A stretch of 32,000 nucleotides of DNA from Bdellovibrionales bacterium. Lineage in GTDB: Bacteria; Bdellovibrionota; Bdellovibrionia; Bdellovibrionales; UBA1609. Below, one piece after another: positions 2,515 through 28,792 of the stretch (positions within the stretch are counted from its first letter, which is position 1; the number at the start of each line of letters is the position of its first letter). The stretch covers positions 210,001 through 242,000 of the forward strand of contig OZ252021.1 of the NCBI GenBank assembly GCA_965247685.1, written 5' to 3'. Below the pieces are notes generated by a model, which made no database searches, was not told where the DNA came from, and was given only the letters and a program-made list of their open reading frames with translations. The position numbers were made by a program, and so were the translations under genes.

Positions 2515-2572
2515 CATTAGGTAAACTAACTTGCTCAGTAGTAATCCGTTTTAACCCACACAAAGGTCAGTT

Positions 2573-3317: not shown

Positions 3318-3359
3318 TGTAAATATTACATACATACTCTATATCAGTTTGATTATATT
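3318..3359 (+). promoter_or_regulatory. Palindrome plus -10-like hexamer upstream of the ANK gene at 3469
   Basis: TGTAAATATTACA at 3318-3330, then 23 nt, then TATATT at 3354-3359. Confidence 0.5.
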
Positions 3360-3468
3360 CATTCAATAAGGTAACAGTAATTGTTTGGAGAGATAAGTTA
3401 TAAAAACTTATACTTCTGATTATTATGGGTTTGTTTTTAAATATGATCTCATTACAAGGGTGTATAAT

Positions 3469-5061: not shown

Positions 5062-5361
5062 CTCACTCTCTATGCAGAAGTAAAATTAACACTTAAATAA
5101 AACTACAACCGCAAGTTTATCACAGGTGATGTTTCACCTGTAGCTGTTAGAGTGATAGCAGATAGACTTATATCAAAAGATTTTGTTGAATATAATGTTA
5201 AATCCTTACCAAGCATAAAATACAAAAAGTTATATAAGAAAAGAGTGAAAAAAAGCTTAAATCTCATCACCCCATGGAAAGAGAAAGAGATCGTATCAAA
5301 ATCGTTGCCCGATAACTGTGTAAAATCTCCACTGAATTAAGCACAGTGTAATAGTTCACTA
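5062..5361 (+). repeat. Type A inter-cassette spacer, second copy
   Basis: Aligns with 2164-2472, with a few substitutions and an indel in the A-run near 5245. The stem-loop ACAGGTGA-TGTT-TCACCTGT lies at 5122-5141. Confidence 0.85.
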
Positions 5362-5400
5362 TGAATTATTACACACATACTCTAATTAGTTGATCATATT
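5362..5400 (+). promoter_or_regulatory. Degenerate palindrome plus -10-like hexamer upstream of the ANK gene at 5463
   Basis: TGAATTATTACA at 5362-5373 (left arm lacks one T), then 21 nt, then CATATT at 5395-5400. Confidence 0.35.
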
Positions 5401-5462
5401 CCTTTTTTATAGGTAAACTAACTTGCTCAGTAGTAATCGTTTGGACTGCACAAAGGTCAGTT

Positions 5463-6074
5463 ATGAAAACTTATGTTATCGGAACAATAATATTTTTTAC
5501 TGCTTATGCAGGAGCAGGAACTTTGGAAGATCAATTTCTCTCAGCAGTTGGATCTGGAGATATTCAAAAAGTTAACAAAATTTTGTCAAAAAAAATAATA
5601 GATCTAGATATCCAAAATGAAAGGGGTCTAACAGCTTTACACCTGGCAGCCAAAAACGGTGACTTAAATATGGTAGAATCCCTACTCAAACACGGAGCAG
5701 ATCCGGATATCCAAGAAGAAGACAAAAAAACAGCTTTACTTATAGCAACTGAAAACGACCATTTTGATATAGCACAACTCCTCCTCAGACACGGAGCAGA
5801 TCCAAATCTCCAAAATGAACATGGTATAACAGCCTTACATTCAGTAGCTCTCAAAGGTAATGGAAGTATGGTACAAATTCTCCTCGAATACAGAGCAGAT
5901 CCAAATAAAAAAGATAAATGGGGTAGAACGGCTTTAAGTTTAGCAATTAAAGCAGGTCACTTAGATGTAATAGCTCTACTCCATGAAGAAACAGCACATA
6001 GTATCCAAGATAAAGTGAACTCCATGCTTCTAAAGTTGGAATCAAAGTGTAAAGATCTCGTCAGCTCCATTTGA
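5463..6074 (+). CDS. Ankyrin-repeat protein (203 aa) with a shortened signal peptide
   Basis: The N-terminus MKTYVIGTIIFFTAYAGAG shows the same upstream-ORF-ATG fusion as the gene at 2573. It has about four ANK units. The C-terminus ...ESKCKDLVSSI* keeps the Cys-x5-SI end. Confidence 0.85.
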   Translation: MKTYVIGTIIFFTAYAGAGTLEDQFLSAVGSGDIQKVNKILSKKIIDLDIQNERGLTALHLAAKNGDLNMVESLLKHGADPDIQEEDKKTALLIATENDHFDIAQLLLRHGADPNLQNEHGITALHSVALKGNGSMVQILLEYRADPNKKDKWGRTALSLAIKAGHLDVIALLHEETAHSIQDKVNSMLLKLESKCKDLVSSI

Positions 6075-6124
6075 AAATAGCTCACTCTTCTATGCAGAAG
6101 TAAAATCAACACTTAGAAAATAAA

Positions 6125-6139
6125 TGGCATTCCCTACGG
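6125..6139 (-). pseudogene. Fragment of the tRNA-Glu 3' end (duplicated junction)
   Basis: TGGCATTCCCTACGG at 6125-6139 is identical to 8922-8936, the 3' acceptor/CCA end of the intact tRNA-Glu. The identity extends about 60 nt leftwards into the ANK 3' flank (6066-6139 versus 8863-8936, one mismatch). After position 6139 only weak similarity to the T-arm remains. Confidence 0.75.
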
Positions 6140-6378
6140 ACTACTAACCGGAGTATCCTGTTAAAATTTTGTATTTTGATGTAGTTCTAATTGTACTATA
6201 TACTCCTATTTACATAAGTATGATTATTAAGCAATAATTATAGCATCATCCGAGTAGTAATATCTTTTATTTCTTTTGGATATTTTTCACACTTTTGTCC
6301 TTTTCCTTTAGGTAGCAAATGCCATTTGAACGTTCAAAAAGAATCAATTCAATTTTTAGAACCACTATTTGTTAAATC

Positions 6379-6492
6379 ATGAACATGTTGAGCAAAGAGC
6401 AAGTTTTACAAATGAACTATCCAGACTTCATTGGATTTATGGGGATGGAAAACACCTCCTTGTTGGAGGACTTTGATGATGAAACTATGTAA
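6379..6492 (+). pseudogene. Possible N-terminal remnant of a SAM-dependent methyltransferase gene
   Basis: The 37-codon ORF MNMLSKEQVLQMNYPDFIGFMGMENTSLLEDFDDETM* resembles, from memory, the N-termini of class I methyltransferases (..LSKEE.L.MNY.DF......N). From about 6470 the sequence becomes the type B spacer, so the ORF is cut off there. Confidence 0.25.
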
Positions 6493-6528
6493 GTATTACA
6501 TACATATTCTAATTAGTTTGACTATATT
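6488..6528 (+). promoter_or_regulatory. Palindrome plus -10-like hexamer upstream of the ANK gene at 6648
   Basis: TGTAAGTATTACA at 6488-6500, then 22 nt, then TATATT at 6523-6528. Confidence 0.5.
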
Positions 6529-6577
6529 CATTAGGTAAAGTAATTTGCTCATCAGTAATTATTTGGAAAGATAAGTT

Positions 6578-6646
6578 ATGAAAACTTATGCTTCTGATTA
6601 TTATGGGTTTGTTTTTAAGTATAATCTCATTACAAGGGGTGTATAA
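6578..6646 (+). promoter_or_regulatory. Conserved short upstream ORF in the ANK leader (MKTYASDYYGFVFKYNLITRGV*)
   Basis: ATG 6578. The stop TAA at 6644-6646 lies 1 nt before the main ATG 6648. Confidence 0.3.
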
Positions 6647-6647
6647 T

Positions 6648-7505
6648 ATGAAAAACTTAATAAAATTATTCGCTCATTCATTCACTATCACTCTTTTGAG
6701 TTTGTCAGTACTCGCAACCGCTCATGCAGAAAAAGTAGAATTAAATGAGAAATCTTTATCACCAGAAGAAAGGGAATTTTTCTCAGCAGTTAAATCTGGG
6801 GATAATAAAAGGGTTGAAGAAATTTTGTCAAAAGAAGATATAGATCTAAATATCCAAAATGAAAGGGGTCTAACAGCTTTAATGATAGCTGCCGAACTAG
6901 GTCATGAGCGTGTGGTAGAATCCCTACTCAAACACGGAGCAGATCCAAATATCGAAAGTAAAAATATCAAACATTCTACTTGGGATCAGAGCACTGCTTT
7001 ACATACGGCAGTTCGCAAGGGCAATGTAAAGTTGATAAAAATTCTCTATGACTACAAAGCAGATCTAGATAAAGGGGATTGGATGGATTACACAGCTTTA
7101 AACCAGGCAGCTGCTGAAAATAATGAAAATGTGGTACAAACTCTCCTCAAACTCGGAGCAGATCCAAATAAAGAAAATGAATTGAAAGAAACTACTTTAC
7201 ATGAGGCAGCTCGCATGGGTCATACTAATATGATAATAGCTTTAGTTACAAATGGAGCAAATATAGATGCCAAAGGTAGAGAAGGTCAAACAGCTTTACA
7301 TTGGGCAGCCTGGAACGGTCATGCAGGTCTGGTACAGGCCCTGCTCAAACTCGGAGCAGATTCAAATATCCAAGATGATAAATATAGAATAGCTTTAGAT
7401 TTTGCAATTACACGAGGTTATAAAGGTGTGGAAGATATTCTCCGTAAACACAAAGCAGTCTCAGGTGCAAACAACAGTTGTAAACAAACTATCAGCTCCA
7501 TTTGA
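6648..7505 (+). CDS. Secreted ankyrin-repeat protein (285 aa)
   Basis: ATG 6648 (MKNLIKLFAHSFTITLLSLSVLATAHA/EKVELNEK) has AAGGGG 8 nt upstream and matches the paralog starts. The track start at 6588 would add 20 non-conserved residues. It has about six ANK units and the tail AVSGANNSCKQTISSI*. Confidence 0.8.
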   Translation: MKNLIKLFAHSFTITLLSLSVLATAHAEKVELNEKSLSPEEREFFSAVKSGDNKRVEEILSKEDIDLNIQNERGLTALMIAAELGHERVVESLLKHGADPNIESKNIKHSTWDQSTALHTAVRKGNVKLIKILYDYKADLDKGDWMDYTALNQAAAENNENVVQTLLKLGADPNKENELKETTLHEAARMGHTNMIIALVTNGANIDAKGREGQTALHWAAWNGHAGLVQALLKLGADSNIQDDKYRIALDFAITRGYKGVEDILRKHKAVSGANNSCKQTISSI

Positions 7506-7663
7506 AAATAGCTCACTCTTCTATGCAGAAGTAGTCTCAACACTTAAAAAAACTACAACCGCAAGTTTATCACATTTGAGTAACTATTTAAAAAAGAACT
7601 TACAGTTGTTTTTAGTATAAATATTCAAGAACTTTTTAACTTTTGATTTTGATGATGAAACTA
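7506..7663 (+). repeat. Type B inter-cassette spacer, second copy
   Basis: Aligns with 3152-3317 almost base for base. Confidence 0.85.
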
Positions 7664-7719
7664 TGTAAGTATTACATACATATTCTAATCAGCTTGATTC
7701 TAATCAGCTTGATTATATT
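7664..7719 (+). promoter_or_regulatory. Palindrome plus -10-like hexamers upstream of the ANK gene at 7840
   Basis: TGTAAGTATTACA at 7664-7676, then 22 nt, then TCTAAT at 7699-7704. A 15-nt tandem duplication (TCTAATCAGCTTGAT x2, 7683-7712) moves the ancestral TATATT to 7714-7719. Confidence 0.45.
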
Positions 7720-7768
7720 CATTCAATAAGGTAACTTTCTCAGCAGTAATTATTTGGAAAGATAAGTT

Positions 7769-7813
7769 ATGAAGACTTGTACTTCTGATTATTATGGGTT
7801 TGTTTTTAAGTAG
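7769..7813 (+). promoter_or_regulatory. Conserved short upstream ORF in the ANK leader (MKTCTSDYYGFVFK*)
   Basis: ATG 7769, stop TAG at 7811-7813, 26 nt before the main ATG 7840. Confidence 0.35.
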
Positions 7814-7839
7814 AATATTACTATAAGGATGTAATCAAC

Positions 7840-8871
7840 ATGAAAAACTTAATAAAATTATTCGCTCATTTATTCACTATCATTCTTTTGAGTTTGTCAG
7901 TAATCGCAACCGCTCATGCAGACAAAGTAGAATTAAATGAGAAACTTTTCTCAGCAGTTAAATCTGGGGATAATAAAAGGGTTGAAGAAATTTTGTTAAA
8001 AAAAATAATAGATCTAGATATCCAAAATGAAAGGGGTCGAACAGCTTTAATGATAGCTGCCGAACTAGGTCATGAACGTGTGGTAGAATCCCTACTCAAA
8101 CACGGAGCAGATCCAAATATCGAAAGTAAAAATATCAAACATTCTACTTTGGATCAGAGCACTGCTTTACATAAGGCAGTTCGCAAGGGCAATGCAAAGT
8201 TGATACAAATTCTCTCTGACTACAAAGCAGATCTAGATAAAGGAGATTGGTTGGGTCTAACACCTTTACATTGGGCAATCGCTGAAGGTTATGAAGATCT
8301 GGTACAAATTCTCCTCAAACTCGGAGCAAATCCAAATATCCAAAATAGAAAGGGTCGAACACCTTTACATTGGGCAGCTCGCATGGGTCATACTAATATG
8401 ATAATAGCTTTAGTTACAAATGGAGCAAATATAGATGCCAAAGGTAGAGAAGGTCTAACACCTTTACATTGGGCAGCCTTTAACGGTTATAATGGTGCGG
8501 TACAGACCCTCCTCGAACACAAAGCAGATCCAAATATCCCAGATAAAGACGGTCGAACACCTTTAAATTTGGCAATTGCACGAGGTCATACTAATGTGAT
8601 AATAGCTTTAGTTACAAATGGAGCAAATATAGATGCCAAAGGTAGAGAAGGTCTAACACTTTTAAATTGGGCAGCCTCTAACGGTCATGCAGGTCTGGTA
8701 CAGACCCTGCTCAAACTCGGAGCAGATCCATATATCCCAGATGATAAAAATAAAACAGCTTTAGATTTGGCAATTGCACAAGGTCATAAAGGTGTGGAGA
8801 ATATTCTCCGTAAACACAGAGCAGTCTCAGGTGCAAACAACAGTTGTAAACAAACTATCAGCTCCATTTGA
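7840..8871 (+). CDS. Secreted ankyrin-repeat protein (343 aa)
   Basis: ATG 7840 has AAGGA upstream. The signal peptide is MKNLIKLFAHLFTIILLSLSVIATAHA/DKVELNEK. It has about eight ANK units (GRTPLHWAARMGHTNMIIALVTNGANIDAK...) and the tail AVSGANNSCKQTISSI*. Confidence 0.9.
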   Translation: MKNLIKLFAHLFTIILLSLSVIATAHADKVELNEKLFSAVKSGDNKRVEEILLKKIIDLDIQNERGRTALMIAAELGHERVVESLLKHGADPNIESKNIKHSTLDQSTALHKAVRKGNAKLIQILSDYKADLDKGDWLGLTPLHWAIAEGYEDLVQILLKLGANPNIQNRKGRTPLHWAARMGHTNMIIALVTNGANIDAKGREGLTPLHWAAFNGYNGAVQTLLEHKADPNIPDKDGRTPLNLAIARGHTNVIIALVTNGANIDAKGREGLTLLNWAASNGHAGLVQTLLKLGADPYIPDDKNKTALDLAIAQGHKGVENILRKHRAVSGANNSCKQTISSI

Positions 8872-8921: not shown

Positions 8922-8996
8922 TGGCATTCCCTACGGGACTCGAACCCGTGTCTTCACCGTGAAAGGGTGATGTCCTAACCGCTAGACGAAGGGAAC
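8922..8996 (-). tRNA. tRNA-Glu (anticodon UUC), CCA encoded
   Basis: The reverse complement is GTTCCCTTCGTCTAGCGGTTAGGACATCACCCTTTCACGGTGAAGACACGGGTTCGAGTCCCGTAGGGAATGCCA. Acceptor stem GTTCCCT/AGGGAAT, anticodon stem TCACC/GGTGA with loop CTTTCAC, T-loop GGTTCGAGTCC. Confidence 0.92.
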
Positions 8997-8999
8997 ACA

Positions 9000-9076
9000 T
9001 GGTGACCCGCCTTGGGCTCGAACCAAGGACCCTCTCCTTAAAAGGGAGATGCTCTACCAAACTGAGCTAGCGGGTC
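9000..9076 (-). tRNA. tRNA-Lys (anticodon UUU), CCA encoded
   Basis: The reverse complement is GACCCGCTAGCTCAGTTTGGTAGAGCATCTCCCTTTTAAGGAGAGGGTCCTTGGTTCGAGCCCAAGGCGGGTCACCA. Acceptor stem GACCCGC/GCGGGTC, anticodon stem TCTCC/GGAGA with loop CTTTTAA. Confidence 0.92.
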
Positions 9077-10747: not shown

Positions 10748-11383
10748 ATGAAGAAACCCAACGTATTCCTATATGTTCTCTTTTTTTTGATCAGTTCTGT
10801 TTTACTCCTGCATTGTGATGGTGTGCAGTCTGCTCGCGAAGACCGTCGAGTCAGAGAATTGGCTCGTTTAGCAAACCTGGATGACTTGGATGATGATGAA
10901 CTGGATGAAGTAATTACGGATGTTGAAGCAAGTATCAAAGACAAATTTAAAAACATTTTTAATAAATTAGAAAAATGTGAATCTTCTACACCTTCTACCC
11001 CACAAACTCGAGCAGATCTTGGTTTTTCACTTTTAGGAATACAAAGGTACAATAGACCTCAACAACTAAGAGTATGCTTCCAACAAAGACTGGAAAGTGC
11101 AACCGAGCTTTTATGTACAGCAAAGCAAGAAATATATTCAGAAAAACAAAGATGTAGAAATTTTGACTTTCGATGTACACGTTTAGACACATCTATCAAC
11201 AGACTAGAGAATCTACAAAGAAGATACAAAACTACTCTGAGAAAGACAGCGAATGAGTTTTCTGGCTGCAGCAGCAGACGCACTGGTATACTCAGAGCAG
11301 ATGAATGTAGTGCTTGGCATGATATTATCGACCATGAATCTTTTATAACCTGTGATTATGATGACCGTTCTCGTCGTTATTAG
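10748..11383 (+). CDS. Hypothetical exported protein (211 aa), acidic stretch and eight cysteines
   Basis: ATG has GAGGAAG about 10 nt upstream. The hydrophobic N-terminus MKKPNVFLYVLFFLISSVLLLHC/DG suggests a signal peptide, possibly an atypical lipobox. It has the run LDDLDDDELDEV and an Arg-rich C-terminal half. I recognise no family. Confidence 0.6.
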   Translation: MKKPNVFLYVLFFLISSVLLLHCDGVQSAREDRRVRELARLANLDDLDDDELDEVITDVEASIKDKFKNIFNKLEKCESSTPSTPQTRADLGFSLLGIQRYNRPQQLRVCFQQRLESATELLCTAKQEIYSEKQRCRNFDFRCTRLDTSINRLENLQRRYKTTLRKTANEFSGCSSRRTGILRADECSAWHDIIDHESFITCDYDDRSRRY

Positions 11384-11483
11384 CATATACATTTCAATTC
11401 ACAAGATGAAAGATCGAAATATCTTCAAAAAAAATTTCTAAAATTATCTAGCCCTTCAAAAAAATATAAGTCATGATAATTCC

Positions 11484-12839
11484 ATGACCGACAAAGGTTT
11501 TGATTTTTTAGTCATTGGAGGAGGTTCTGGTGGTGTTCGAGCAGCCCGAAGAGTTGCTTCCATGGGAAAGAAGGTTGCCCTGTTTGAAAAATCCGATATA
11601 GGAGGAACTTGTGTTCTCAAAGGCTGTATACCCAAAAAACTTATGTGGTATGGTGCTAGATTTTTAGAAGATACAAAGCTTGCACAAGAGTACGGCTGGA
11701 AAACTTCATCTCCTAAGTTAGATTGGAAATTACAAAAAGAAAGAAGAGAGATGGAATTAAAAAGACTCTCTCAAATCTACACTAAGCTTTTAACAGATAG
11801 TCATGTTCACATTATTCCACATGAAGCCTGCTTTGAAGCGCCTGGCACAATTCGCGCAGGAGACGCTCTCTATTCTGCACCCTATATTCTGATTGCAACT
11901 GGCGGATGGCCTTATAAGCCTGACATTGAAGGTGTTGAGCATACTCTCTCCTCTAATGAGATTTTTGAACTCCAACAGCAACCTCACTCCTTGATTGTTG
12001 TAGGAGCTGGCTATATTGCTTTAGAATTTGCAGGTATATTCCAAGCTTGTGGAACTCACACAACAGTTCTTTGTCGAAAAGATAAAGTACTCAGGGGCTT
12101 TGATGATGATGTTCGTATGTTCTATGAAAAACAAGCTCAACTCAAAGGACTTAATATTATTCATAATTTTCATCCTGAAAAAATAAAAAAAAATAAAGGT
12201 CAACTTTCAATTTATAACTCTGAAGGTCGTTCCCACTCTGCAGAACACATCCTTTTTGCAACAGGAAGAACACCTTTTATCGAACCTCTTCATTTAGAAA
12301 AAGCTGGCATTCAAACCAAAAACGGAAGTATTTTAGTCTCGGAGCAATTTGAAACTTCTGCTAAAGGAGTGTATGCTATCGGAGATTGTGCTCATACTCC
12401 TTATGCTTTAACTCCTGTCGCCTTAGCAGAAGCTGAAGTTTTAGTGCAAAATCTATTCGGCTTGCAAAAAACAAAGATGGATTACAATAATATTCCAAGT
12501 GCAGTTTTCTCAAATCCCAACATTGCTCAAGTGGGGCTCACCGAGCAACAAGCCTTAGAGAAAGGTTTAAAAATTCAAGTGTTTGAATCCTCCTTTCGCC
12601 CTTTGAAATACACCATTAAACCGATAAAGACTGAAGAAAAAATCTATGTTAAAATGATCGTCAACCAAGAAAACGATCGTGTATTAGGCTGCCATATGGT
12701 AGGAGAAGATTCTCCAGAAATTATTCAAGGGTTGGCGATTGCTATGGTAGCTAGGGCTACTAAAAAAGATTTTAACCGCACTATTGGACTTCACCCTTCA
12801 AGCGCCGAGGAGTTTTGTACTTTAAGGACTCCAAGATGA
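11484..12839 (+). CDS. gor: Glutathione-disulfide reductase family flavoprotein
   Basis: 451 aa. It has the FAD-binding GGGSGG, the redox-active GGTCVLKGCIPKK (CxxxxC) and ILIATGG-P, and the C-terminal KKDFNRTIGLHPSSAEEF matches the Gor dimer-interface His-Pro motif. It is collinear with E. coli Gor. Confidence 0.88.
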   Translation: MTDKGFDFLVIGGGSGGVRAARRVASMGKKVALFEKSDIGGTCVLKGCIPKKLMWYGARFLEDTKLAQEYGWKTSSPKLDWKLQKERREMELKRLSQIYTKLLTDSHVHIIPHEACFEAPGTIRAGDALYSAPYILIATGGWPYKPDIEGVEHTLSSNEIFELQQQPHSLIVVGAGYIALEFAGIFQACGTHTTVLCRKDKVLRGFDDDVRMFYEKQAQLKGLNIIHNFHPEKIKKNKGQLSIYNSEGRSHSAEHILFATGRTPFIEPLHLEKAGIQTKNGSILVSEQFETSAKGVYAIGDCAHTPYALTPVALAEAEVLVQNLFGLQKTKMDYNNIPSAVFSNPNIAQVGLTEQQALEKGLKIQVFESSFRPLKYTIKPIKTEEKIYVKMIVNQENDRVLGCHMVGEDSPEIIQGLAIAMVARATKKDFNRTIGLHPSSAEEFCTLRTPR

Positions 12840-15714: not shown

Positions 15715-17346
15715 CTATCGACTCAATGTCACACCGTAGAAAGACTCACTACCATGTGGAGCCAAAATATAACCCTGAACTTTCTTATTGGAACCTCGAA
15801 AACCATAAGTGTGAACTAATGGAACCCAAGGGCTTTCTTCCGCAAAAATCTCTTGTGCTTTTTTATAAAGCTCTTCTCTTTCTTTTTGATTCAAAGTTTG
15901 AGAAGCTTTTTTTACCAACTGACTAAAAGGTTTATTGCACCATTGAGCTAAATTCGTACCGCTTGTTAGAGATGTACAACTGAGAAGAGTTCCTAAGAAA
16001 TTATCCGGATCCCCATTATCACTTGTCCACCCCATCTGAACTAAGGCATGCTCTGCTTTTTGCGTCTTTTGAAGGTAGGTCACCCAATCATAATTAACGA
16101 GATGAACATTAATACCTACTTGAGCTAAATCTTCCTTCATTAATTCGCCCATTTTTTTTCCATCTGGGTTATAAGGGCGGGAAACTGGAAGCACCCATAG
16201 ATCAATATCAAAACCTTTTTCATAACCTGCTTTTTTCAGTAACTCTTTTGCTTTCTTTACATCATACTCATAAACTTTAATGTTCTTATTGTAAGACCAC
16301 ATACGAGGAGGAATAGGCCCCTTAGCGATCTGGGCGTTTCCTAGGTAAATAGCCTTCACATAAAGAGAACGATTCAAAGCATGATGAATGGCCTGTCGAA
16401 TAAATTTATTGTCTAAAGGAGTTTTTTTCACATTCATACCCAGATAAGCCACGTTATAAACTTCACTTTTTATCAACTTTAGTTTTTCATGGTTGGCGAT
16501 AGCCTCGTAATCACTAGGAGAAGGAAAACTCATCAAATGACATTCCTCTCTTTTTAATTTTTGAAACCTTACAGAAGCATCTGGAGTGATGGAAAAAACC
16601 ATTCCACTTAAAGAAGACGGTGCTTTAAAATATTTTTTATTCGTTTTATAACGAATCAAACTATCTTTTTTATAATCTGTTAAAATGAAGGGGCCTGTTC
16701 CAACAGGAATATGATCGATATCTCCTTTTCTCTTCTGTTGAATCAGTTGATCTCCGTATTCTTTAGAAAGAACCACAGGAAACTGCATGGCTAAACTGAC
16801 TAAAAATGTGGCACTCACTTCTTTCAAATCAAAACGAACAGTAGAGTTATTAATTTTCACGACATCTTTTAAAACTTTATCTAAGCCCATGGCAAAAAAG
16901 TACATATAGTTTCCACCACTTACTTTATGAAACGGATGAGATTTATCGAAAAATCTTTTAAAAGAAAAAAGAACGTCATCGGCGTTCATCTTGCGAGTGG
17001 GGGTAAAGTTTTTGGTGGTATGAAAAGACACATCTTGTCTTAGATAAAAAGTATATTGAAGACCATCTTTAGATATTTTCCATGATTTTGCTAGATTCGG
17101 CTGAATAATCGAAGTTCCTCTCTTAAATTCAACAAGTCCATCGTAAACATCACTGATCGCATCAAAGCTTGTGCCATCGGATGCAACTTGAGGATTGAGA
17201 AAGCGAGGAGAACCCTCAGAACAAAAAACAAAAATATTAGGAGTGGAGTTTTCTGAGTCTGAAACACTATCATTTGTATTTTGAAACAAATAAAAGCCAA
17301 TGACTAATGATAATAAAATAATCCAAAATATGTGTCTTTTTTTCAC
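15715..17346 (-). CDS. dppA: Peptide ABC transporter periplasmic substrate-binding protein (family 5, DppA-like)
   Basis: FVFCSEGSPRFLNPQVASDGTSFDA...LVEF...PNLAKSWKISKDGLQYTFYLRQDVSFH...TPTRKMNADDVLFSFKR is collinear with E. coli DppA. I place the start at GTG 17346 (GAAGGG 6 nt upstream, MKKRHIFWIILLSLVIGFYLF signal peptide). The longer track ORF to 17409 would overlap ung. Confidence 0.85.
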   Translation of the reverse strand: MKKRHIFWIILLSLVIGFYLFQNTNDSVSDSENSTPNIFVFCSEGSPRFLNPQVASDGTSFDAISDVYDGLVEFKRGTSIIQPNLAKSWKISKDGLQYTFYLRQDVSFHTTKNFTPTRKMNADDVLFSFKRFFDKSHPFHKVSGGNYMYFFAMGLDKVLKDVVKINNSTVRFDLKEVSATFLVSLAMQFPVVLSKEYGDQLIQQKRKGDIDHIPVGTGPFILTDYKKDSLIRYKTNKKYFKAPSSLSGMVFSITPDASVRFQKLKREECHLMSFPSPSDYEAIANHEKLKLIKSEVYNVAYLGMNVKKTPLDNKFIRQAIHHALNRSLYVKAIYLGNAQIAKGPIPPRMWSYNKNIKVYEYDVKKAKELLKKAGYEKGFDIDLWVLPVSRPYNPDGKKMGELMKEDLAQVGINVHLVNYDWVTYLQKTQKAEHALVQMGWTSDNGDPDNFLGTLLSCTSLTSGTNLAQWCNKPFSQLVKKASQTLNQKEREELYKKAQEIFAEESPWVPLVHTYGFRGSNKKVQGYILAPHGSESFYGVTLSR

Positions 17347-22885: not shown

Positions 22886-23851
22886 ATGCAAGGCTATAAA
22901 GTATCTTTTAAAGAAGCTTGCAAACTACTACAACAAGGTGATGTGGTTTCTATTCCTACAGAAACAGTATATGGATTGGCTGGAGATATTAGTAATGCCG
23001 AAACAATAAAAAAAATTTTTCATATAAAACAAAGACCCTTTTTTGATCCTTTGATCGTCCATTTTTCTCACTGGAGTCAATTAAAAAAAATAGCTCAATG
23101 TTCTTCTCCTGTCACAGAACGTTTATCTCAATCTTTTCACCCGGGACCTTTGACGTTGGTGCTCCCAAAAAAAGAAGAAATCTCTGATCTAGTTACATCC
23201 CATCTTCCTACGGTAGCAGTACGAATACCCTCTCATTCTTTGACATTGAAGCTTTTACGAGAGACTCAACTACTTTTAGCGGCGCCTAGTGCTAATTTGT
23301 TTTCAAAAATAAGTCCCACTCGTGCCGAACATGTGACACTCTCTTTATCCGTTCCTGTATTAGATGGAGGTCCTTGCGATGTAGGAATTGAATCAACTAT
23401 TTTGGAAGTGCAGGAAGATCAAAAAACACTTGTTGTATTAAGACCCGGAGTGATTGGTTTGAAAGAACTCCATAAATTTTTAAAATCTAATAACTTCACA
23501 AATTGGAGTGTTCATTTATCTGATTCTAATCTATCTACTCATCCTGGACAGTTTCACGCTCACTACACTCCGGATGCACCATTGGTATTAGTTCAAGTTC
23601 AAAAAAGGATTACTTCTGATGCAATCATCAAAAAAATAAAAGAATTCTATCCCCTTCTTGAACCAGAAGAATATAAAATCTCAGATGACCCTTATCTCTT
23701 AGCGAGAAATCTTTATCACAATTTAAGAAATCTTTCTCAAAATTCTGTAGGTTACGTTGTGAGAACTTATCCATTCAAATATAAAAATGATGCTTGGAGA
23801 GCTGTCTGGAACCGTCTTGAAAAAGCTTCTTCCAAAACCATTAATCTTTAA
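22886..23851 (+). CDS. tsaC: L-threonylcarbamoyladenylate synthase (Sua5/YwlC-type TsaC, YrdC plus Sua5 domains)
   Basis: 321 aa. It has PTETVYGLAGD, RPFFDPLIVH, AVRIPSH and LAAPSANLFSKISPT, and the length fits the two-domain Sua5 form. Its last 11 nt overlap the convergent gene at 23841-25310. Confidence 0.85.
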   Translation: MQGYKVSFKEACKLLQQGDVVSIPTETVYGLAGDISNAETIKKIFHIKQRPFFDPLIVHFSHWSQLKKIAQCSSPVTERLSQSFHPGPLTLVLPKKEEISDLVTSHLPTVAVRIPSHSLTLKLLRETQLLLAAPSANLFSKISPTRAEHVTLSLSVPVLDGGPCDVGIESTILEVQEDQKTLVVLRPGVIGLKELHKFLKSNNFTNWSVHLSDSNLSTHPGQFHAHYTPDAPLVLVQVQKRITSDAIIKKIKEFYPLLEPEEYKISDDPYLLARNLYHNLRNLSQNSVGYVVRTYPFKYKNDAWRAVWNRLEKASSKTINL

Positions 23852-25310
23852 AACTATTTTGGAGAGAATCTAAAGTATCACGGACATCCCTTTGATATTG
23901 CTTTCTTACTTTATCCATTTCATATGTAGATTCAAAACCGATGTAAACTACATCTCCTGCGATAACAGCATAAGCAGAAACACCAGCTAAAGAGACAGCA
24001 CCAATACCTATACCGCGTGCGATACGACCTAGTCTGTGGAAGAAAGATTTTCGACCTTCTAACACTTGATTGGTGACATTTTTCAAGTCTTCTCCTGCTT
24101 TCCTTATCTTCATCTCTTCTTCACTAACTTTAACATCTTGAGCTGCACTTGTTTTTGGATCAGATGTTTGACTCCTGTCGACATTGTTATCAGCTGCACT
24201 TGTTTTTGGATCAGATGTTTGACTCCTGTCGACATTGTTATCAGCTATGGCACGTTTGCTTTGTTCATACTCTTCATTTATGGCAAGTTTGCTTTGTTCA
24301 TACTCTTCATACGCTTCATTTACGGTAAGTTTTCTTTGTTCATTCGCTACAGCTATGGCAAATTTTCTTTTTCCATCCTCTTCAGCTATGGCACGAACTT
24401 TTTGTTTATTCGCTTCACCTAGGGCACGTTTTCTTTGTTCATTCGCTTCATCTATGGCACGTTCTCTTTCAACCCCCGTCTCCTTCTCCGCTTCAACTAG
24501 GGCACGAGCTTTTTGTTTATCCGCTTCAACTATGGCACGTTTTCTTTGTTCATCCGCTTCAACTAGGGCACGTTTTCTTTGTTCATTCGCTTCAGCTATG
24601 GCACGTTTGTTTTGTCCATTCGCTTTAACTACGACACGAGCTTTTTGTTTATCCGCTTCAACTAGGGCACGAACTTTTTGTTTATTCGCTTCAACTGGGG
24701 CATCTTCTTTTTTCGATTTTTCTGTTGCCACTAGGTCATCAATTTTTCTTTTTTGTTTATTCATTTGTTCAAATAGGACTGTGCTCTTTTCTGGGTCAGC
24801 CTTTATAGCTTGGTCAAGTATTCCTTGTTGAATCTTCACCGCTCTCCTTAGTTTTCTAGCACCAGGCTTTTTATTAGGAGTTAAGAGTCGGACAGTACCT
24901 TTTCCAAATGCTGAAGCTTTATGTACCATATATGCAGTACCAAGAGCTGCTGGCACAGCGATATATATACCACGCTCACTGTTTACACCAATCGCTTCAT
25001 TCATCTGTTGGAATTCATCTATAAAGACAGAAACTCCCTGTTTAAAAATCAACTCTATCCTATCTTCACCGTCTAATTGTTCAAAAGCAAGAGCTATGTT
25101 TTCCCATTTAGAAGTAATCGATTCTAATTGATCGAGATCTATATCTCCACCATTTGTTCCAAGATTATTCCTCACATCTTGTGCAAGCAACATAGCTAAT
25201 TGATCGTCTAGTGACTCATTTGGTTCTTCATTATTTTCTACAGCATTTGCTGACAGACTCAAAAGAATGACAGTGAATAAACTGACGAATAATTTTATTA
25301 AGTTTTTCAT
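23841..25310 (-). CDS. Signal-peptide protein with hendecad (11-aa) Lys/Glu/Ala-rich repeat core and C-terminal glycine-rich hydrophobic segment (489 aa)
   Basis: The N-terminus MKNLIKLFVSLFTVILLSLSANA/VENNEE uses the same signal-peptide module as the ANK genes. The core is about 13 units of the type VEADKQKARAL / AEANEQRKRAL, followed by 2 x DNNVDRSQTSDPKTSAA. The C-terminus has RGIGIGAVSLAGVSAYAVIAGDVVYIGF plus a charged tail. Confidence 0.8.
   Translation of the reverse strand: MKNLIKLFVSLFTVILLSLSANAVENNEEPNESLDDQLAMLLAQDVRNNLGTNGGDIDLDQLESITSKWENIALAFEQLDGEDRIELIFKQGVSVFIDEFQQMNEAIGVNSERGIYIAVPAALGTAYMVHKASAFGKGTVRLLTPNKKPGARKLRRAVKIQQGILDQAIKADPEKSTVLFEQMNKQKRKIDDLVATEKSKKEDAPVEANKQKVRALVEADKQKARVVVKANGQNKRAIAEANEQRKRALVEADEQRKRAIVEADKQKARALVEAEKETGVERERAIDEANEQRKRALGEANKQKVRAIAEEDGKRKFAIAVANEQRKLTVNEAYEEYEQSKLAINEEYEQSKRAIADNNVDRSQTSDPKTSAADNNVDRSQTSDPKTSAAQDVKVSEEEMKIRKAGEDLKNVTNQVLEGRKSFFHRLGRIARGIGIGAVSLAGVSAYAVIAGDVVYIGFESTYEMDKVRKQYQRDVRDTLDSLQNSFKD
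24141..24242 (-). repeat. 51-nt tandem repeat x2 (encodes DNNVDRSQTSDPKTSAA twice)
   Basis: AGCTGCACTTGTTTTTGGATCAGATGTTTGACTCCTGTCGACATTGTTATC is repeated with a period of 51 nt. An identical pair lies at 26236-26337. Confidence 0.9.
24243..24700 (-). repeat. Degenerate 33-nt coding repeats (hendecads)
   Basis: The pattern ...GCTTCAACTAGGGCACG(A/T)...TTT(C/G)TTTGTT(C/T)AT(C/T)C... recurs every 33 nt, with two irregular units. Confidence 0.8.
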
Positions 25311-25365
25311 ATTAATTACACTCCCTATAATAATTTAAAAACAACCTCATAATAATCAGATTTCA

Positions 25366-25407
25366 AATTTAGCACAATAAAAATTTCTAAACCATGTAAT
25401 TATTACA
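25366..25407 (-). promoter_or_regulatory. Palindrome plus -10-like hexamer upstream of the hendecad-repeat gene at 23841-25310
   Basis: On the coding (minus) strand: TGTAATAATTACA (25395-25407), then 23 nt, then TAAATT (25366-25371) preceded by TGC (extended -10-like). The ATG is about 55 nt further on. Confidence 0.5.
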
Positions 25408-25415
25408 CTTTAATA

Positions 25416-25667
25416 TTACTGTTGTTGTCTTTCTATTTCTGTTAATTCCTCTTTAAACCATTCTTGAATGATTCGATTCTGATCTTGATTCTCTTGATAT
25501 TGATACCATAGCATAATAGCCACTCCTCCAATTCCAACTCCTACTCCACTTAGAACAAATTTTTTCGCATAAGAAGGTGGAATGTGTAATTTATTTAATG
25601 AAGCAAAATATGCTTGAGACAGTGGAGATTTGATGAACTTAAAAGATTTTAAAATAAGGGAAAAAAG
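25416..25667 (-). pseudogene. Truncated copy (C-terminal 83 codons) of the 273-aa membrane-protein gene
   Basis: Aligns with 27882-28133. It translates to FSLILKSFKFIKSPLSQAYFASLNKLHIPPSYAKKFVLSGVGVGIGGVAIMLWYQYQENQDQNRIIQEWFKEELTEIERQQQ*. It has no start codon and no upstream part, and it ends at a junction with tsaC-derived sequence. Confidence 0.8.
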
Positions 25668-25946
25668 AAGAAATCTCTGATCTAGTTACATCCCATCTTC
25701 CTACGGTAGCAGTACGAATACCTTCTCATTCTTTGACATTGAAGCTTTTACAACAGACTCAACTACTTTTAGCAGCGCCTAGTACTAACTTGTTTTCAAA
25801 AATAAGTCCCACTCGTGTTAAGAAATCTTTCTCAAAATTCTGTAGGTTACGTTGTGAGAACTTATCCATTCAAATATAAAAATGATGCTTGGAGAGCTGT
25901 CTGGAACCGTCTTGAAAAAGCTTCTTCCAAAACCATTAATCTTTAA
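25668..25946 (+). pseudogene. tsaC fragment copy with an internal deletion
   Basis: 25668-25817 aligns with tsaC 23174-23324, and 25818-25946 aligns with tsaC 23723-23851. About 398 nt of tsaC are missing between the two pieces, and there is no 5' part. Confidence 0.8.
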
Positions 25947-27693
25947 AACTATTTTGGAGAGAATCTAAAGTATCACGGACATCCCTTTGATATTGCTTTC
26001 TTACTTTATCCATTTCATATGTAGATTCAAAACCGATGTAAACTACATCTCCTGCGATAACAGCATAAGCAGAAACACCAGCTAAAGAGACAGCACCAAT
26101 ACCTACACCGCGTGCGATACGACCTAGTCTGTGGAAGAAAGATTTTCGACCTTCTAACACTTGATTGGTGACTTTTTTCAAGTCTTCTCCTGCTTTCCTT
26201 ATCTTCATCTCTTCTTCACTAACTTTAACATCTTGAGCTGCACTTGTTTTTGGATCAGATGTTTGACTCCTGTCGACATTGTTATCAGCTGCACTTGTTT
26301 TTGGATCAGATGTTTGACTCCTGTCGACATTGTTATCAGCTATGGCAAGTTTTCTTTGTTCATACTCTTCAGCTATGGCAAGTTTTCTTTGTCCATGCTC
26401 TTCATCTATGGCAAGTTTTCTTTGTCCATGCTCTTCATCTGTGGCACTTTTTCTTTGTTCATACTCTTCATCTATGGCACTTTTTCTTTTTTCATACTCT
26501 TCATCTATGGCACTTTTTCTTTGTTTATATTCTTCATCTATGGCAAGTTTTCTTTGTGGATCCGCTTCAGCTATCGCTACAGCTACGGCACGATCTTTTT
26601 GTGCAAACTCTTCAACCATGGCAAGTCTTCTTTGTTCATGCGCTTCATCTAGGTCAAATTTTCTTTTTGCATCCGCTTCATCTAGGGCAGACTGTCTTTT
26701 TGCATCCACTTCATCTAGGGCAGACTGTCTTTTTGCATCCGCTTCATCTAGGGCAGACTGTCTTTTTGCATCCACTTCATCTAGGGCAGACTGTCTTTTT
26801 GCATCCACTTCATCTAGGGCAGATTTTCTTTTTGCATCTTTCGCATCTGCTTTTTCTTGTCTTTTCGCTGCTGCTTCTTCTTTTTTCGCATTTTTCGCAT
26901 CTGCTTTTTCTTGTCTTTTCGCTGCTGCTTCTTCTTTTTTCGCATTTTTCGCATCTGCTTTTTCTTGTCTTTTCGCTGCTACTTCTTCTTTTTTCGCATT
27001 TTTCGCATCTGCTTTTTCTTGTCTTTTCGCTGCTACTTCTTCTTTTTTCGCATTTTTCGCATCTGCTTTTTCTTTTTTCGCATCTGCTTCTTTTTTCGCT
27101 TCTGCTTTTACCACTAGGTCATCAATTTTTCTTTTTTGTTTATTCATTTGTTCAAATAGGACTGTGCTCTTTTCTGGGTCAGCCTTCATAGCTTGGTCAA
27201 GTATTCCTTGTTGAATCTTCACCGCTCTCCTTAGTTTTCTAAAAGAAGGTTTTTTATTAGGAGTTAAGAGTCGGACAGTACCTTTTCCAAATGCTGAAGC
27301 TTTATGTACCATATATGCAGTACTAATAGCTGCTGGCACAGCGATATATATACCACGCTCACTGTTTACACCAATCGCTTCATTCATCTGTTGGAATTCA
27401 TCTATAAAGACAGAAACTCCCTGTTTAAAAATCAACTCTATCCTATCTTCACCGTCTAATTGTTCAAAAGCAAGAGCTATGTTTTCCCATTTAGAAACTA
27501 TCGATTCTAATTGATCGAGATCTATATCTCCACCATTTGTTCCAAGATTATTCCTCACATCTTGTGCAAGCAACATAGCTAATTGATCGTCTAGTGACTC
27601 ATTCGGTTCTTCATTATTTTCTACGGCATTTGCTGACAAACTCAAAAGAATGATAGTGAATAAACTGACGAATAATTTTATTAAGTTTTTCAT
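25936..27693 (-). CDS. Signal-peptide protein with hendecad and 18-aa Lys/Glu/Ala-rich repeats and C-terminal glycine-rich hydrophobic segment (585 aa), paralog of 23841-25310
   Basis: The first 195 aa or so and the last 140 aa or so are almost identical to the paralog. The core differs: 4 x EKADAKNAKKEE(V/A)AAKRQ, 6 x DAKRQSALDE(V/A), 7 x DEEY(K/E)QRKSAI. Confidence 0.8.
   Translation of the reverse strand: MKNLIKLFVSLFTIILLSLSANAVENNEEPNESLDDQLAMLLAQDVRNNLGTNGGDIDLDQLESIVSKWENIALAFEQLDGEDRIELIFKQGVSVFIDEFQQMNEAIGVNSERGIYIAVPAAISTAYMVHKASAFGKGTVRLLTPNKKPSFRKLRRAVKIQQGILDQAMKADPEKSTVLFEQMNKQKRKIDDLVVKAEAKKEADAKKEKADAKNAKKEEVAAKRQEKADAKNAKKEEVAAKRQEKADAKNAKKEEAAAKRQEKADAKNAKKEEAAAKRQEKADAKDAKRKSALDEVDAKRQSALDEVDAKRQSALDEADAKRQSALDEVDAKRQSALDEADAKRKFDLDEAHEQRRLAMVEEFAQKDRAVAVAIAEADPQRKLAIDEEYKQRKSAIDEEYEKRKSAIDEEYEQRKSATDEEHGQRKLAIDEEHGQRKLAIAEEYEQRKLAIADNNVDRSQTSDPKTSAADNNVDRSQTSDPKTSAAQDVKVSEEEMKIRKAGEDLKKVTNQVLEGRKSFFHRLGRIARGVGIGAVSLAGVSAYAVIAGDVVYIGFESTYEMDKVRKQYQRDVRDTLDSLQNSFKD
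26236..26337 (-). repeat. 51-nt tandem repeat x2
   Basis: The same unit as at 24141-24242. Confidence 0.9.
26338..26568 (-). repeat. 33-nt coding repeats, about 7 units (DEEYxQRKxAI)
   Basis: CAGCTATGGCAAGTTTTCTTTGTTCATACTCTT-like units with a period of 33 nt. Confidence 0.85.
26640..26837 (-). repeat. 33-nt coding repeats, about 6 units (DAKRQSALDEV)
   Basis: TGCATCC(G/A)CTTCATCTAGGGCAGACTGTCTTTT with a period of 33 nt (for example 26668 and 26701). Confidence 0.9.
26838..27075 (-). repeat. 54-nt coding repeats, about 4 units (EKADAKNAKKEEVAAKRQ)
   Basis: TTTTTCGCATCTGCTTTTTCTTGTCTTTTCGCTGCTGCTTCTTCTTTTTTCGCA with a period of 54 nt (for example 26891 and 26945). The + strand here is strongly pyrimidine-rich. 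Confidence 0.9.
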
Positions 27694-27748
27694 ATTAATT
27701 ACACTCCCTATAATAATTTAAAAACAACCCCATAATAATCAGATTTCA

Positions 27749-27790
27749 AATTTAGCACAATAAAAATTTCTAAACCATGTAATTATTACA
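27749..27790 (-). promoter_or_regulatory. Palindrome plus -10-like hexamer upstream of the hendecad-repeat gene at 25936-27693
   Basis: On the minus strand: TGTAATAATTACA (27778-27790), then 23 nt, then TAAATT (27749-27754). Confidence 0.5.
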
Positions 27791-27860
27791 TCATAACATT
27801 AATGCTACAGTCTTGCTACTTCTTCTAATTCCTCTTTAAGCCATTAAAATTTCTAAACCA

Positions 27861-27873
27861 TGTAATTATTACA
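27861..27873 (-). promoter_or_regulatory. Orphan copy of the palindrome
   Basis: TGTAATTATTACA. On the minus strand it is followed by only 15 nt of the leader (TGGTTTAGAAATTTT), and then by a short remnant resembling the 3' end of the 273-aa gene (27812-27845). Confidence 0.4.
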
Positions 27874-27881
27874 TTTTAATA

Positions 27882-28691
27882 TTACTGTTGTTGTCTTTCT
27901 ATTTTTGTTAATTCCTCTTTAAACCATTCTTGAATGATTTGATTCTGATCTTGATTCTCTTGATATTGATACCATAGCATAATAGCCACTCCTCCAATTC
28001 CAACTCCTGCCCCACTTAGAAAAAACTTTTTCGCATAAGAAGGTGGAATGTGTAATTTATTTAATGAAGCAAAATATGCTCGAGACAGAGGAGATTTGAC
28101 GAACCTAAAAGATTTTAAAATAAGGGAAAAAAGTTTCTCCATCGCCACCAATTCTAAAGCATAAAATCCAGTGCTTCCTAAAATATCAACAATTCGAATA
28201 GTTTTGGCAAAACCACCTATCTCATCTTGATCCATAGTCCCTAAACAATCTATTGCCCCTTGCTTAAATCCATCTGAACGGATGAGAAAAATTGTATATA
28301 AAGAATGGAACCAGCTTTCGAGCTCAAAAAATCCAGTATTCGTTTTTTCGAGATAGTCTGCTTTTTTCCCTCCAATAGCTGAAAAAGGCTGGGCTGCACC
28401 TTCATATAAAATATGCATCCAAGCTAATAGAGAAGAATCTTCTGAATCATATTGATCCTGTTCATTCAATTCACCTGATCCAGCAACCGTACGATAAACG
28501 GAACATAGACTTATGGTCATAGAATAAGCATCTTTTTCCACACTCATTCTATAATCGTATAGATCTTGTAAGACCTCATCTCCAAAATTTTTACGAGTTA
28601 CCTTTTGAATACTTTGCAATTCAGTATTTGATTGTGCTTGCACAGAAAATACAATGAATAAGGAAAAAATAAAATATAACAAACGAAACAT
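27882..28691 (-). CDS. Hypothetical signal-peptide protein with C-terminal glycine-rich TM segment (269 aa from ATG 28691; 273 aa from GTG 28703)
   Basis: The signal peptide is MFRLLYFIFSLFIVFSVQA/QSN, with AGGGAG upstream. The C-terminus has FFLSGAGVGIGGVAIMLWY followed by the tail QYQENQDQNQIIQEWFKEELTKIERQQQ. I recognise no family. Confidence 0.7.
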   Translation of the reverse strand: MFRLLYFIFSLFIVFSVQAQSNTELQSIQKVTRKNFGDEVLQDLYDYRMSVEKDAYSMTISLCSVYRTVAGSGELNEQDQYDSEDSSLLAWMHILYEGAAQPFSAIGGKKADYLEKTNTGFFELESWFHSLYTIFLIRSDGFKQGAIDCLGTMDQDEIGGFAKTIRIVDILGSTGFYALELVAMEKLFSLILKSFRFVKSPLSRAYFASLNKLHIPPSYAKKFFLSGAGVGIGGVAIMLWYQYQENQDQNQIIQEWFKEELTKIERQQQ

Positions 28692-28733: not shown

Positions 28734-28792
28734 ATTATACAGATTTTATTTAGAAAGACGTGTAAAAAAAGATATGTGTGTAAATTTTACAC
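28734..28792 (-). promoter_or_regulatory. Palindrome GTGTAAA-T-TTTACAC plus extended -10 (TGTATAAT) upstream of the 273-aa gene
   Basis: The palindrome spans 28778-28792 (core TGTAA-ATT-TTACA at 28779-28791). On the minus strand TGTATAAT lies at 28734-28741, 39 nt beyond the core. This spacing differs from the 21-23 nt seen at the other copies. Confidence 0.4.

Follow-up and report, generated by a model that had tools for sequence, protein, structure and literature searches.

A short cassette with a translation start and a predicted export signal is shared by two unrelated gene families in a Bdellovibrionales bacterium

In Borrelia, the common leaders of the Erp proteins are attributed to recombination between paralogous genes, which are co-regulated through the operator sites that they share. 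The Erp proteins of Borrelia burgdorferi (OspE-related, OspF-related, and Elp) combine a conserved upstream region and leader peptide with dissimilar mature parts. They are the closest precedent for the system that we describe here, which is a cassette of about 115 nucleotides (nt) at the 5' ends of two unrelated types of genes in a Bdellovibrionales bacterium. The DNA that we read is a 32-kb stretch of contig OZ252021.1 (positions 210,001 to 242,000 of the forward strand; hereafter, the window) from a single genome of 1.28 Mb. The two types of genes are ANK genes, which match Pfam Ank families, and HEN genes, which are orphans with 11-residue repeats; each gene is named after the window coordinate of its start codon. 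In the literature on Borrelia, the Elp family is classified as "OspE/F-like leader peptide" proteins (PMC12242104), and the titles of Marconi 1996 and Akins 1999, as cited in PMC10016077, refer to "upstream homology box" genes.

Related arrangements are known from other bacteria. In the vlp, vsp, vsa, and vpma genes of Mycoplasma, divergent bodies that are rich in repeats follow a highly conserved 5' untranslated region and signal-peptide region, and recombination takes place where the two meet. These are single lipoprotein families that are switched by site-specific inversion or promoter slippage. In Rickettsia, palindromic elements (repeats of ~100-150 nt) are inserted in coding sequences and are translated within the protein; they are found inside many unrelated genes and have no start codon. 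In phytoplasmas, whose genomes are reduced, secreted proteins that are otherwise unrelated have a conserved signal-peptide motif at the N-terminus: the SVM motif (PF12113) of effectors such as SAP11 and SAP54 (PMC8026896). The genes for SVM proteins lie in the mobile-unit regions of Mollicutes, and a leader conserved at the DNA level is not what defines them. By analogy, our case appears to work like the Borrelia, phytoplasma, and Mycoplasma systems but is a member of none of them. What seems to be distinctive is that the unit is short and promoter-less, and that a coding start is seen both with and without it. This does not overturn current ideas, since the sharing of leader peptides by recombination is established in Borrelia and Mollicutes.

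The cassette is a block of 111-117 nt that runs from TCTGATTATTAT (beginning at TCTGATT) to TGTCAG, or ~113-119 nt if it is taken from TCTGATTATTAT to GTCAG(T/C)A. It is found at the 5' ends of four ANK genes and two HEN genes. The forward-strand copies belong to ANK1159 (1103-1215, which is 113 nt, with a 6-nt deletion in the signal-peptide part; ATG at 1159), ANK3469 (3415-3531; ATG at 3469), ANK6648 (6593-6710; ATG at 6648), and ANK7840 (7784-7902; ATG at 7840). The reverse-strand copies belong to HEN25310 (25248-25360; ATG at 25310) and HEN27693 (27631-27743; ATG at 27693). An earlier, sequence-only reading of this DNA had proposed that the same leader and signal-peptide start is joined to two unrelated protein bodies. 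We agree: the ANK proteins match Ank in Pfam, while HEN has no Pfam or NCBIfam family and no detectable homolog. Some of the proposed limits need adjustment. The span given around HEN25310 (25251-25407) also takes in a separate upstream palindrome (25395-25407). The paralog does carry the module, but the span given for it (27694-27790) covers only the leader and upstream sequence with the palindrome, as the ATG is at 27693. In ANK7840, which was the ANK example, the module lies at 7784-7900 instead of 7786-7902.

In gapped alignments over 111-119 nt, the ANK copies are 80-87% identical to the HEN copies, so the similarity is real, although the earlier estimate of ~85-90% over ~115 nt was slightly high. 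The ANK copies are 82-95% identical to each other, and the two HEN copies are 97% identical. As had been noticed, the homology ends at the end of the h-region of the signal peptide: identity falls to 45-53% in the next 60 nt, which is the background for global alignment of AT-rich DNA. In the 60 nt upstream of the cassette, local-alignment scores between ANK and HEN are within the shuffle distribution, except for the 13-nt palindrome. At the protein level, HEN25310 and ANK7840 align at residues 1-22 only (BLASTP E = 5e-8). An independent repeat search matched 7830-7903 to 27630-27703 (74 nt, 91% identity) and to 25247-25320 (88%); overall, the ANK/HEN pairs appear in this search as inverted repeats of 65-74 nt at 88-91% identity. 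The variants of the cassette do not segregate with the type of body. We also considered a longer module that would reach up to the palindrome, and rejected it, as the intervening sequence is not significantly similar.

Pattern searches gave 6 copies each of the 25-nt coding start ATGAAAAACTTAATAAAATTATTCG and of the 26-nt leader block TCTGATTATTATNNNNTTGTTTTTAA, with 0 expected (0 matches in 100 shuffles). The first 25 coding nucleotides had been described as identical; this holds for four of the six copies, while ANK1159 and ANK3469 have one mismatch each. A nhmmer profile of the six copies recovers them at E = 1e-28 to 1e-34. With this profile, we found no further convincing copy in the window, and no partial copy or copy away from a gene start; there was a single 12-bit match, at 16376-16440.

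To look beyond the window, we ran a full HMMER scan of 1.84 billion protein representatives with a profile of the six N-termini. The scan returned three proteins of this genome (P0128, which corresponds to 6588-7505 in the window; P0121, which is ANK1159; and P0129) along with one spurious repeat protein. Apart from this spurious protein, there was no cassette-type N-terminus outside this genome among the 1.84 billion representatives. A word-indexed search with the signal-peptide profile gave no match, and P0129 came from the full HMMER scan. P0129 is an ANK protein that is encoded on the window's own contig but outside of the window, and its N-terminus is MRNLIKLFVSLFTLLSLSAIGTIICFTAYA. V9, S10, and A19 in its signal peptide are of the HEN type, within the context of the ANK-A type (ANK1159 and P0129), and the protein has the same two-residue deletion as ANK1159. 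With P0129, the genome has at least seven copies of the cassette, and the bodies seen so far are ANK and HEN only; beyond the window, the protein-level scan found the cassette N-terminus on ANK bodies only. Both the copy number and the list of bodies are lower bounds, as cluster representatives can hide members. For example, HEN25310 (P0122 / P0123) falls in a 90%-identity cluster that is led by an unrelated 46-residue metagenome protein, and this artefact hides HEN25310 from homology searches. At the DNA level, the 26-nt leader pattern had 3 and 2 matches in public genome and metagenome collections, all of which were single chance matches with no MKNLIK start nearby.

Evidence that the cassette is a discrete unit comes from within the ANK family. 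Two ANK genes, ANK2573 and ANK5463, lack the cassette, and their N-terminus is MKTYVIGTIICFTAYAGAGA. In ANK2573 (2573-2602, + strand), ATGAAAACTTATGTT is directly followed by ATCGGG, with the junction between 2587 and 2588; the corresponding junction in ANK5463 (5463-5492, + strand) is between 5477 and 5478. In ANK1159, ATGAAAACTTATGTT is found 71 nt upstream of the MKNLI start, and ATCGGGACAATAATATG is found immediately after the cassette. If 1103-1215 (113 nt) is removed from ANK1159 in silico, the result is identical to ANK2573 at 60/60 nt over the junction and to ANK5463 at 56/60, and the encoded 20-residue N-terminus is identical to that of ANK2573. The cassette in ANK1159 is therefore a precise indel. 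Because ANK1159 differs from its closest paralog by exactly the cassette, we suggest that a ready-made export front end was copied between genes.

The edges of this indel (before TCTGATT and after GTCAGTA) are also the limits of the homology between ANK and HEN genes (which begins at TCTGATT and ends at GTCAG(Y)A), to within 0-2 nt. A single insertion would make these edges coincide. No bases are common to the ends of the insert and the flanks, which means that there is neither a target duplication nor microhomology at the ANK1159 junction. The flanks of ANK1159 resemble those of the cassette-less genes (82-88% identity over the upstream 100 nt and 91-100% over the downstream 45 nt) rather than those of the ANK-B genes, namely ANK3469, ANK6648, and ANK7840 (61-66% upstream and ~41% downstream). 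The cassette of ANK1159, however, is 92% identical to that of ANK7840, with an identical stretch of 30 nt near the Shine-Dalgarno (SD) site. The HEN-type residues of P0129, on an ANK-A-type protein, agree with transfer as a unit. With filled and empty sites inside the ANK family, the case for the cassette as a unit is stronger than the sequence-only reading knew.

The cassette comprises a nearly invariant 26-nt 5' block, an SD site, an ATG, and 21 codons. The SD site is AAGGA, AAGGGG, or GGGAG and is 8-10 nt before the ATG. The n-region is MKNLIK (K2 and K6 are present in 5 of the 6 window copies; ANK1159 has N6), and the h-region within the cassette is LFxxLFTIILLSLS. The uncharged runs are 18-21 residues long, or 38 residues in ANK1159, and the maximum 10-residue Kyte-Doolittle mean is 2.3-2.9. 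The AXA cleavage motif lies outside the cassette and is specific to the recipient: AHA/D in ANK-B, ANA/V in HEN, and AGA/S in ANK-A. By a hand rule for n-, h-, and c-regions (not SignalP), these N-termini have the anatomy of a Sec/signal-peptidase-I signal peptide, with AXA at -3/-1. The cleavage region has no lipobox Cys, and none of the named signal-peptide families (SVM or PF12113, YSIRK, ESPR) matched at E <= 0.01 in Pfam or E <= 1 in NCBIfam. The sequence-only reading had spoken of effector families, for which these proteins are at most candidates: a Sec signal carries a protein across the inner membrane only.

The sequence-only reading had called this an expression-and-export module. The export start is borne out, but "expression" amounts to an SD site and a start codon: we found no conserved sigma-70-like promoter inside the cassette, and since the ANK and HEN versions differ by a 7-nt indel, they cannot have an internal -35/-10 pair in common. 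A -10-like hexamer abuts the 5' edge of the cassette in both the ANK and the HEN contexts, so the cassette could equal the 5' end of the transcript. An RNA element in the leader was considered and rejected, as there was no Rfam match and the fold z-scores (-0.65 to +1.3) were at the level of shuffled sequences. Given no internal promoter and no conserved RNA fold, we regard the cassette as a putative translation-start-plus-export unit that is not demonstrably a transcription unit. Two minor features of the leader may be mentioned. An ATG is conserved within the 26-nt block in all copies (TTATTATGRG) and opens a short upstream open reading frame (uORF). Also, the SD regions CUAUAAGGAUGU and UUACAAGGGUGU (7822-7833, 3456-3467, and equivalents) match 10/12 positions of the consensus for CsrA (RUACARGGAUGU) from systematic evolution of ligands by exponential enrichment; as SD sites resemble this consensus by nature, the match is no more than a lead.

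These properties distinguish the cassette from the described systems. The Erp proteins of Borrelia have lipobox lipoprotein signals, are encoded on cp32 prophage plasmids, and share a region that includes the promoter. In contrast, the signal here is of the signal-peptidase-I type, the shared region is only ~115 nt and starts downstream of the likely promoter, and the setting is chromosomal: the cassettes lie amid purA, tsaC, and opp genes, on neither a plasmid nor a prophage. Also, the filled/empty pair points to insertion into a pre-existing coding start. Unlike in the Mycoplasma systems, the bodies are not related to each other, lipobox and silent cassettes are both absent, and the window encodes no recombinase. 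Unlike the Rickettsia elements, the cassette has no palindromic fold and brings its own SD site and ATG. There is no sequence relationship to the phytoplasma SVM motif and no match to PF12113 (Pfam).

In the ANK genes that carry the cassette, there are remnants of another start. In ANK1159, the former ANK start with its SD site (AAAGG) is still present (1088-1132, + strand) and is now the beginning of a uORF of 14 codons whose stop lies within the cassette. The equivalents of the former start are at 6578 and 7769, and the one at 3400 (ANK3469) is mutated to ATA. Among the cassette-bearing ANK genes, the uORF from the old ATG has 14-22 codons and ends in or just after the cassette. The old SD site and ATG are intact in ANK1159 and degraded in ANK-B. 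Similarly, the 38-residue uncharged run of ANK1159 consists of the h-region of the cassette plus the complete old h/c-region, while the old h/c-region is shortened in the ANK-B genes (ATCGCAACCGCTCATGCAGAC vs. ATCGGGACAATAATATGTTTTACTGCTTATGCAGGA). One genome thus offers an empty site, a recently filled site in which the old start codon is a fossil and the h-region is double, and a trimmed mature form. This would be a rare natural series of a protein acquiring or upgrading its export signal, with the exchange of a 5' module caught in the act. As a side note, the frame of ANK6648 is continuous from 6588, and the public annotation (P0128, 305 residues) begins there. We think that this start is probably 20 codons too early, so the public gene model at 6588 would need correction.

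Both families also share a palindrome, TGTAATNATTACA, which has the 7-1-7 form ATGTAAT-N-ATTACAT and is upstream of every ANK and HEN gene. Allowing up to one mismatch, there are 8 matches in the window (0.18 expected), and all of them are upstream of ANK or HEN genes, including the cassette-less ANK2573. On the ANK side, the palindromes are at 985-997 (ANK1159), 2473-2485, 3318-3330, 5362-5373 (degenerate), 6488-6500, and 7664-7676. On the HEN side, they are at 25395-25407 (HEN25310), 27778-27790, and 27861-27873. HEN27693 has two palindromes, instead of the one in HEN25310, because of an 83-nt tandem duplication (27778-27900) that contains the end of a gene for a 273-residue protein and the palindrome. 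At two mismatches, a palindrome-like sequence, TGTAAATTTTACA, is also found upstream of the 273-residue gene (28779-28791). The palindrome's center is 91 nt before the start codon in HEN genes, 94-97 nt before the old start in ANK genes, and 82 nt before the start of the 273-residue gene, as compared to 145-170 nt before the cassette's ATG in ANK genes. The distance from the palindrome to the cassette is 41 nt in HEN and 91-114 nt in ANK, which implies that the palindrome is independent of the cassette.

The core of the palindrome (GTAATNATTAC) matches the core of the Bacillus-type Zur box (TAAATCGTAATNATTACGATTTA; PMC2706843, PMC545781) at 11/11 positions. More generally, 7-1-7 inverted repeats are the architecture of Fur-family operators (PMC5007448), and an AT-rich 7-1-7 inverted repeat that lies 82-97 nt before native start codons is like such an operator. 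On the other hand, the flanks that set specificity are ATGTAAT here instead of TCGTAAT as in the Zur box, and the genes behind the palindrome are not metal-uptake genes. We consider the palindrome to be a candidate for a shared operator, with the likeness to Fur and Zur sites being only a resemblance. It probably puts both the ANK and the HEN families under one transcription factor. The sequence-only reading had suggested that the ANK and HEN blocks belong to one functional system; the common palindrome is independent support for co-regulation of the two blocks, and they may form such a system. The cassette and the palindrome could be handles for finding the secretome and the regulon of this uncultured-type bacterium with its small (1.28 Mb) genome.

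How did two unrelated families come to have the same 5' end? We favor, with some reservation, the explanation that an ANK gene received a HEN-type 5' cassette at codon 5/6 and that gene conversion then spread the cassette. The spacing of the palindrome, the fossil SD site and ATG, and the double h-region all fit a scenario in which an ANK gene took up a HEN-type (or third-party) 5' segment. In detail, the native arrangement would be the HEN type, with the palindrome's center 91 nt before the start codon. A copy would have entered an ANK gene between codons 5 and 6, at a time when this gene already possessed an SD site, an ATG, and a short signal peptide (MKTYVIGTIICFTAYAGA), and ANK2573 and ANK5463 would preserve the state before the insertion. 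The insertion would turn the old start into a short uORF and double the h-region; ANK1159 and P0129 show this double form. Trimming of the old h-region would have come later, in the ANK-B genes (3469, 6648, and 7840), along with decay of the old SD site and ATG. Spread and homogenization among paralogs would have occurred through gene conversion and tandem duplication. As for its function, the cassette would replace or supply both the start of translation and the half of the export signal that targets the membrane. Any body that follows in frame would then use this start region for its translation and be passed on to the Sec machinery.

Several points weigh against this insertion model. The donor could be a third gene family that lies outside the 32-kb window of the 1.28-Mb genome. 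The direction from HEN to ANK is read from parsimony and anatomy, rather than from an outgroup, and if gene conversion is ignored, then one loss in the lineage of ANK2573 and ANK5463 is as cheap as repeated gains. The junctions have no microhomology or target duplication that would account for the original insertion. And gene conversion into an empty ANK-A site would have only ~4 nt (ATCG) of homology on the right-hand side.

The strongest alternative, which we view as doubtful, is that the cassette is native to ANK genes. In that case, the HEN ancestor captured the 5' end of an ANK gene by illegitimate recombination, and ANK2573 and ANK5463 lost the cassette later, by a deletion that happened to join the start of a chance uORF in frame to the tail of the signal peptide. 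The cassette is present in both ANK subfamilies (ANK1159 and P0129 in A; 3469, 6648, and 7840 in B), which is why one loss is as parsimonious as several gains, and there are at least 5 ANK copies as compared to one duplicated HEN pair. But two independent events would have to match at both breakpoints to within 0-2 nt, and the deletion would have to create a working SD site, ATG, and signal peptide by accident. There are no direct repeats at the ends of the supposed deletion. Furthermore, the old SD site and ATG are best kept where the cassette looks newest (ANK1159), and the spacing between the palindrome and the start codon suits HEN as the native context.

Could the cassette itself be mobile? 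That it is a small non-autonomous element, resembling a miniature inverted-repeat transposable element or of a new kind, that inserts at the 5' ends of genes and supplies them with an SD site, a start codon, and the beginning of a signal peptide strikes us as unlikely. Such an element would account for filled and empty sites with exact edges (although gene conversion between paralogs would look alike), for the identical edges in two unrelated contexts, and for the discordance between the phylogeny of the cassette and that of its flanks. The termini, CTGA...TCAG, form an inverted repeat of 4-5 bp. However, this is the only inverted repeat of the cassette's ends, and there is no target-site duplication. 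There are also no subterminal hairpins; the fold z-scores are at background. The left flanks (TGTT vs. GAAA) differ, so no common target is evident, and the window encodes no transposase or recombinase. In the window, no copy lies away from a gene start and no partial copies are seen; copies are also missing from the syntenic loci of three relatives (see below) and from the protein representatives outside this genome. A variant of this idea is that the cassette is a mobile "secretion front-end" whose ends are fixed and which some dedicated mechanism copies, time and again, into genes at their first codons. We think this is improbable as well. If it were true, the recipient genes would all come to use one kind of translation start and Sec signal, and a secretome particular to this lineage would be built in this way.

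It is far less plausible that the inverted cassettes are the recombination sites of programmed switching, like that of the vsa and vsp genes of Mycoplasma, with bodies swapped behind one expression site. In favor of this, the ANK copies are oriented opposite to the HEN copies, at distances of 17-26 kb, and the two families are variable and rich in repeats, which is often true of phase-variable surface proteins. But nothing would be switched by an exchange, since every copy has the full cassette and the cassette-less genes possess starts of their own, and an inversion would flip 16-20 kb of housekeeping genes. No recombinase gene is in the window, and the copies are 13-20% diverged, unlike actively recombining sites. 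Finally, the similarity might be put down to AT-rich or signal-peptide composition in general, given a GC content of 36% and the many bacterial proteins that begin with MK(N/K)L. This explanation is already refuted by the shuffles for two separate sub-blocks and the nhmmer E-values given above, by the non-coding 26-nt block being the best-conserved part of the profile, and by the lack of similarity to the cassette in the window's three other signal-peptide genes (10748, 27882, and 28794).

The HEN genes form a pair on the reverse strand (block 2, 23841-27693). HEN25310 (23841-25310) encodes a 489-residue orphan with a signal peptide, an N-terminal region, 33-nt (11-residue) repeats, and a hydrophobic C-terminal segment; HEN27693 (25936-27693) encodes a 585-residue paralog with a different array of 33-nt and 54-nt units. 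Besides the signal peptide, HEN also has hydrophobic segments that resemble membrane anchors. The single-sequence AlphaFold model of HEN is all-helical, and with a mean predicted local distance difference test score of 55, it is too weak for a fold search. We wondered if HEN was related to the neighboring 273-residue protein, but on comparison they are unrelated.

Both HEN genes are inside a recent tandem segmental duplication (repeat families D9, D10, and D12). The duplicated unit carries a 3' fragment of tsaC (25818-25946 is identical to 23723-23851) and a truncated copy of the 273-residue gene (25417-25667 is 96% identical to the equivalent part of 27882-28133). So, the two HEN cassettes are not independent, and the second is a tandem duplicate, not a further grafting event. 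The repeat arrays have already diverged since the duplication (489 vs. 585 residues). The HEN repeats also include a 51-nt unit, ADNNVDRSQTSDPKTSA, which occurs twice in each gene (24141-24246 and 26236-26341); its 4 copies are 100% identical, although the adjacent 33-nt arrays have diverged.

The ANK genes form an array on the forward strand (block 1, 1-8871) with strong matches to Ank in Pfam. The members are at 1159-2163, 2573-3151, 3469-5061, 5463-6074, 6648-7505, and 7840-8871, and an additional partial ANK gene is cut by the start of the window. Between the two accessory blocks are housekeeping genes: purA, a glutathione-reductase-like gene, an epmA-like gene, opp permeases, ung, dapF, icd, and tsaC. 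The window's GC content is 36%, and the accessory blocks and the core genes have equal GC content.

The ANK array is just past tRNA-Glu and tRNA-Lys (8922-9076), which adjoin purA. To see what is found at this site in relatives, we compared three loci from genomes whose PurA is 83%, 80%, or 79% identical (on contigs of 1.16 Mb, 0.59 Mb, and 46 kb); the two tRNA genes lie around 11345-11596 in these loci (L006, L007, and L008). The window's own PurA has a 100% match on a 1.28-Mb contig, and its named matches, at about 59-61% identity, are from Bdellovibrionales metagenome-assembled genomes. The order purA, tRNA-Lys(ttt), tRNA-Glu(ttc) is kept in the relatives. Past tRNA-Glu, the gene content differs in each genome: there is the ANK array here, Sel1 in one relative, and AbiE with divergent ANK genes in another. 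Neither the ANK array nor the cassette (searched with the cassette profile) is present at the syntenic site in these three loci. Because the genes beyond tRNA-Glu differ among relatives, the ANK array is in a variable spot and the cassette is lineage-specific; this comparison suggests that the site is a hot spot for variable islands. In the relative with 80% identity (L007), two paralogous secreted repeat proteins (3218-4765 and 4805-6574) have in common a signal peptide of their own, and a palindrome-like sequence, TGTAAATATTACA (3051-3063), is ~160 nt upstream of them (chance p ~0.08).

Two other features of the ANK family are worth recording. ANK3469 (3469-5061) is a fusion of two ANK genes, with ENILHVAHADKVELNEK (4545-4606) repeating the family's mature N-terminus in the middle of the protein. 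We considered this fusion as a third coincident breakpoint, and rejected it, because it is ~11 nt 3' of where the cassette would end. Also, the ANK proteins have a conserved C-terminal tail (2110-2163, 3100-3151, 7455-7505, 8820-8871, and P0129), with sequences such as AVSGANNSCKQTISSI, AVSGGNSCRQIIHSI, and SGGNSCAAAIIGFI. This tail had no match in NCBIfam or Pfam; its conservation suggests that it may be a sorting or modification motif.

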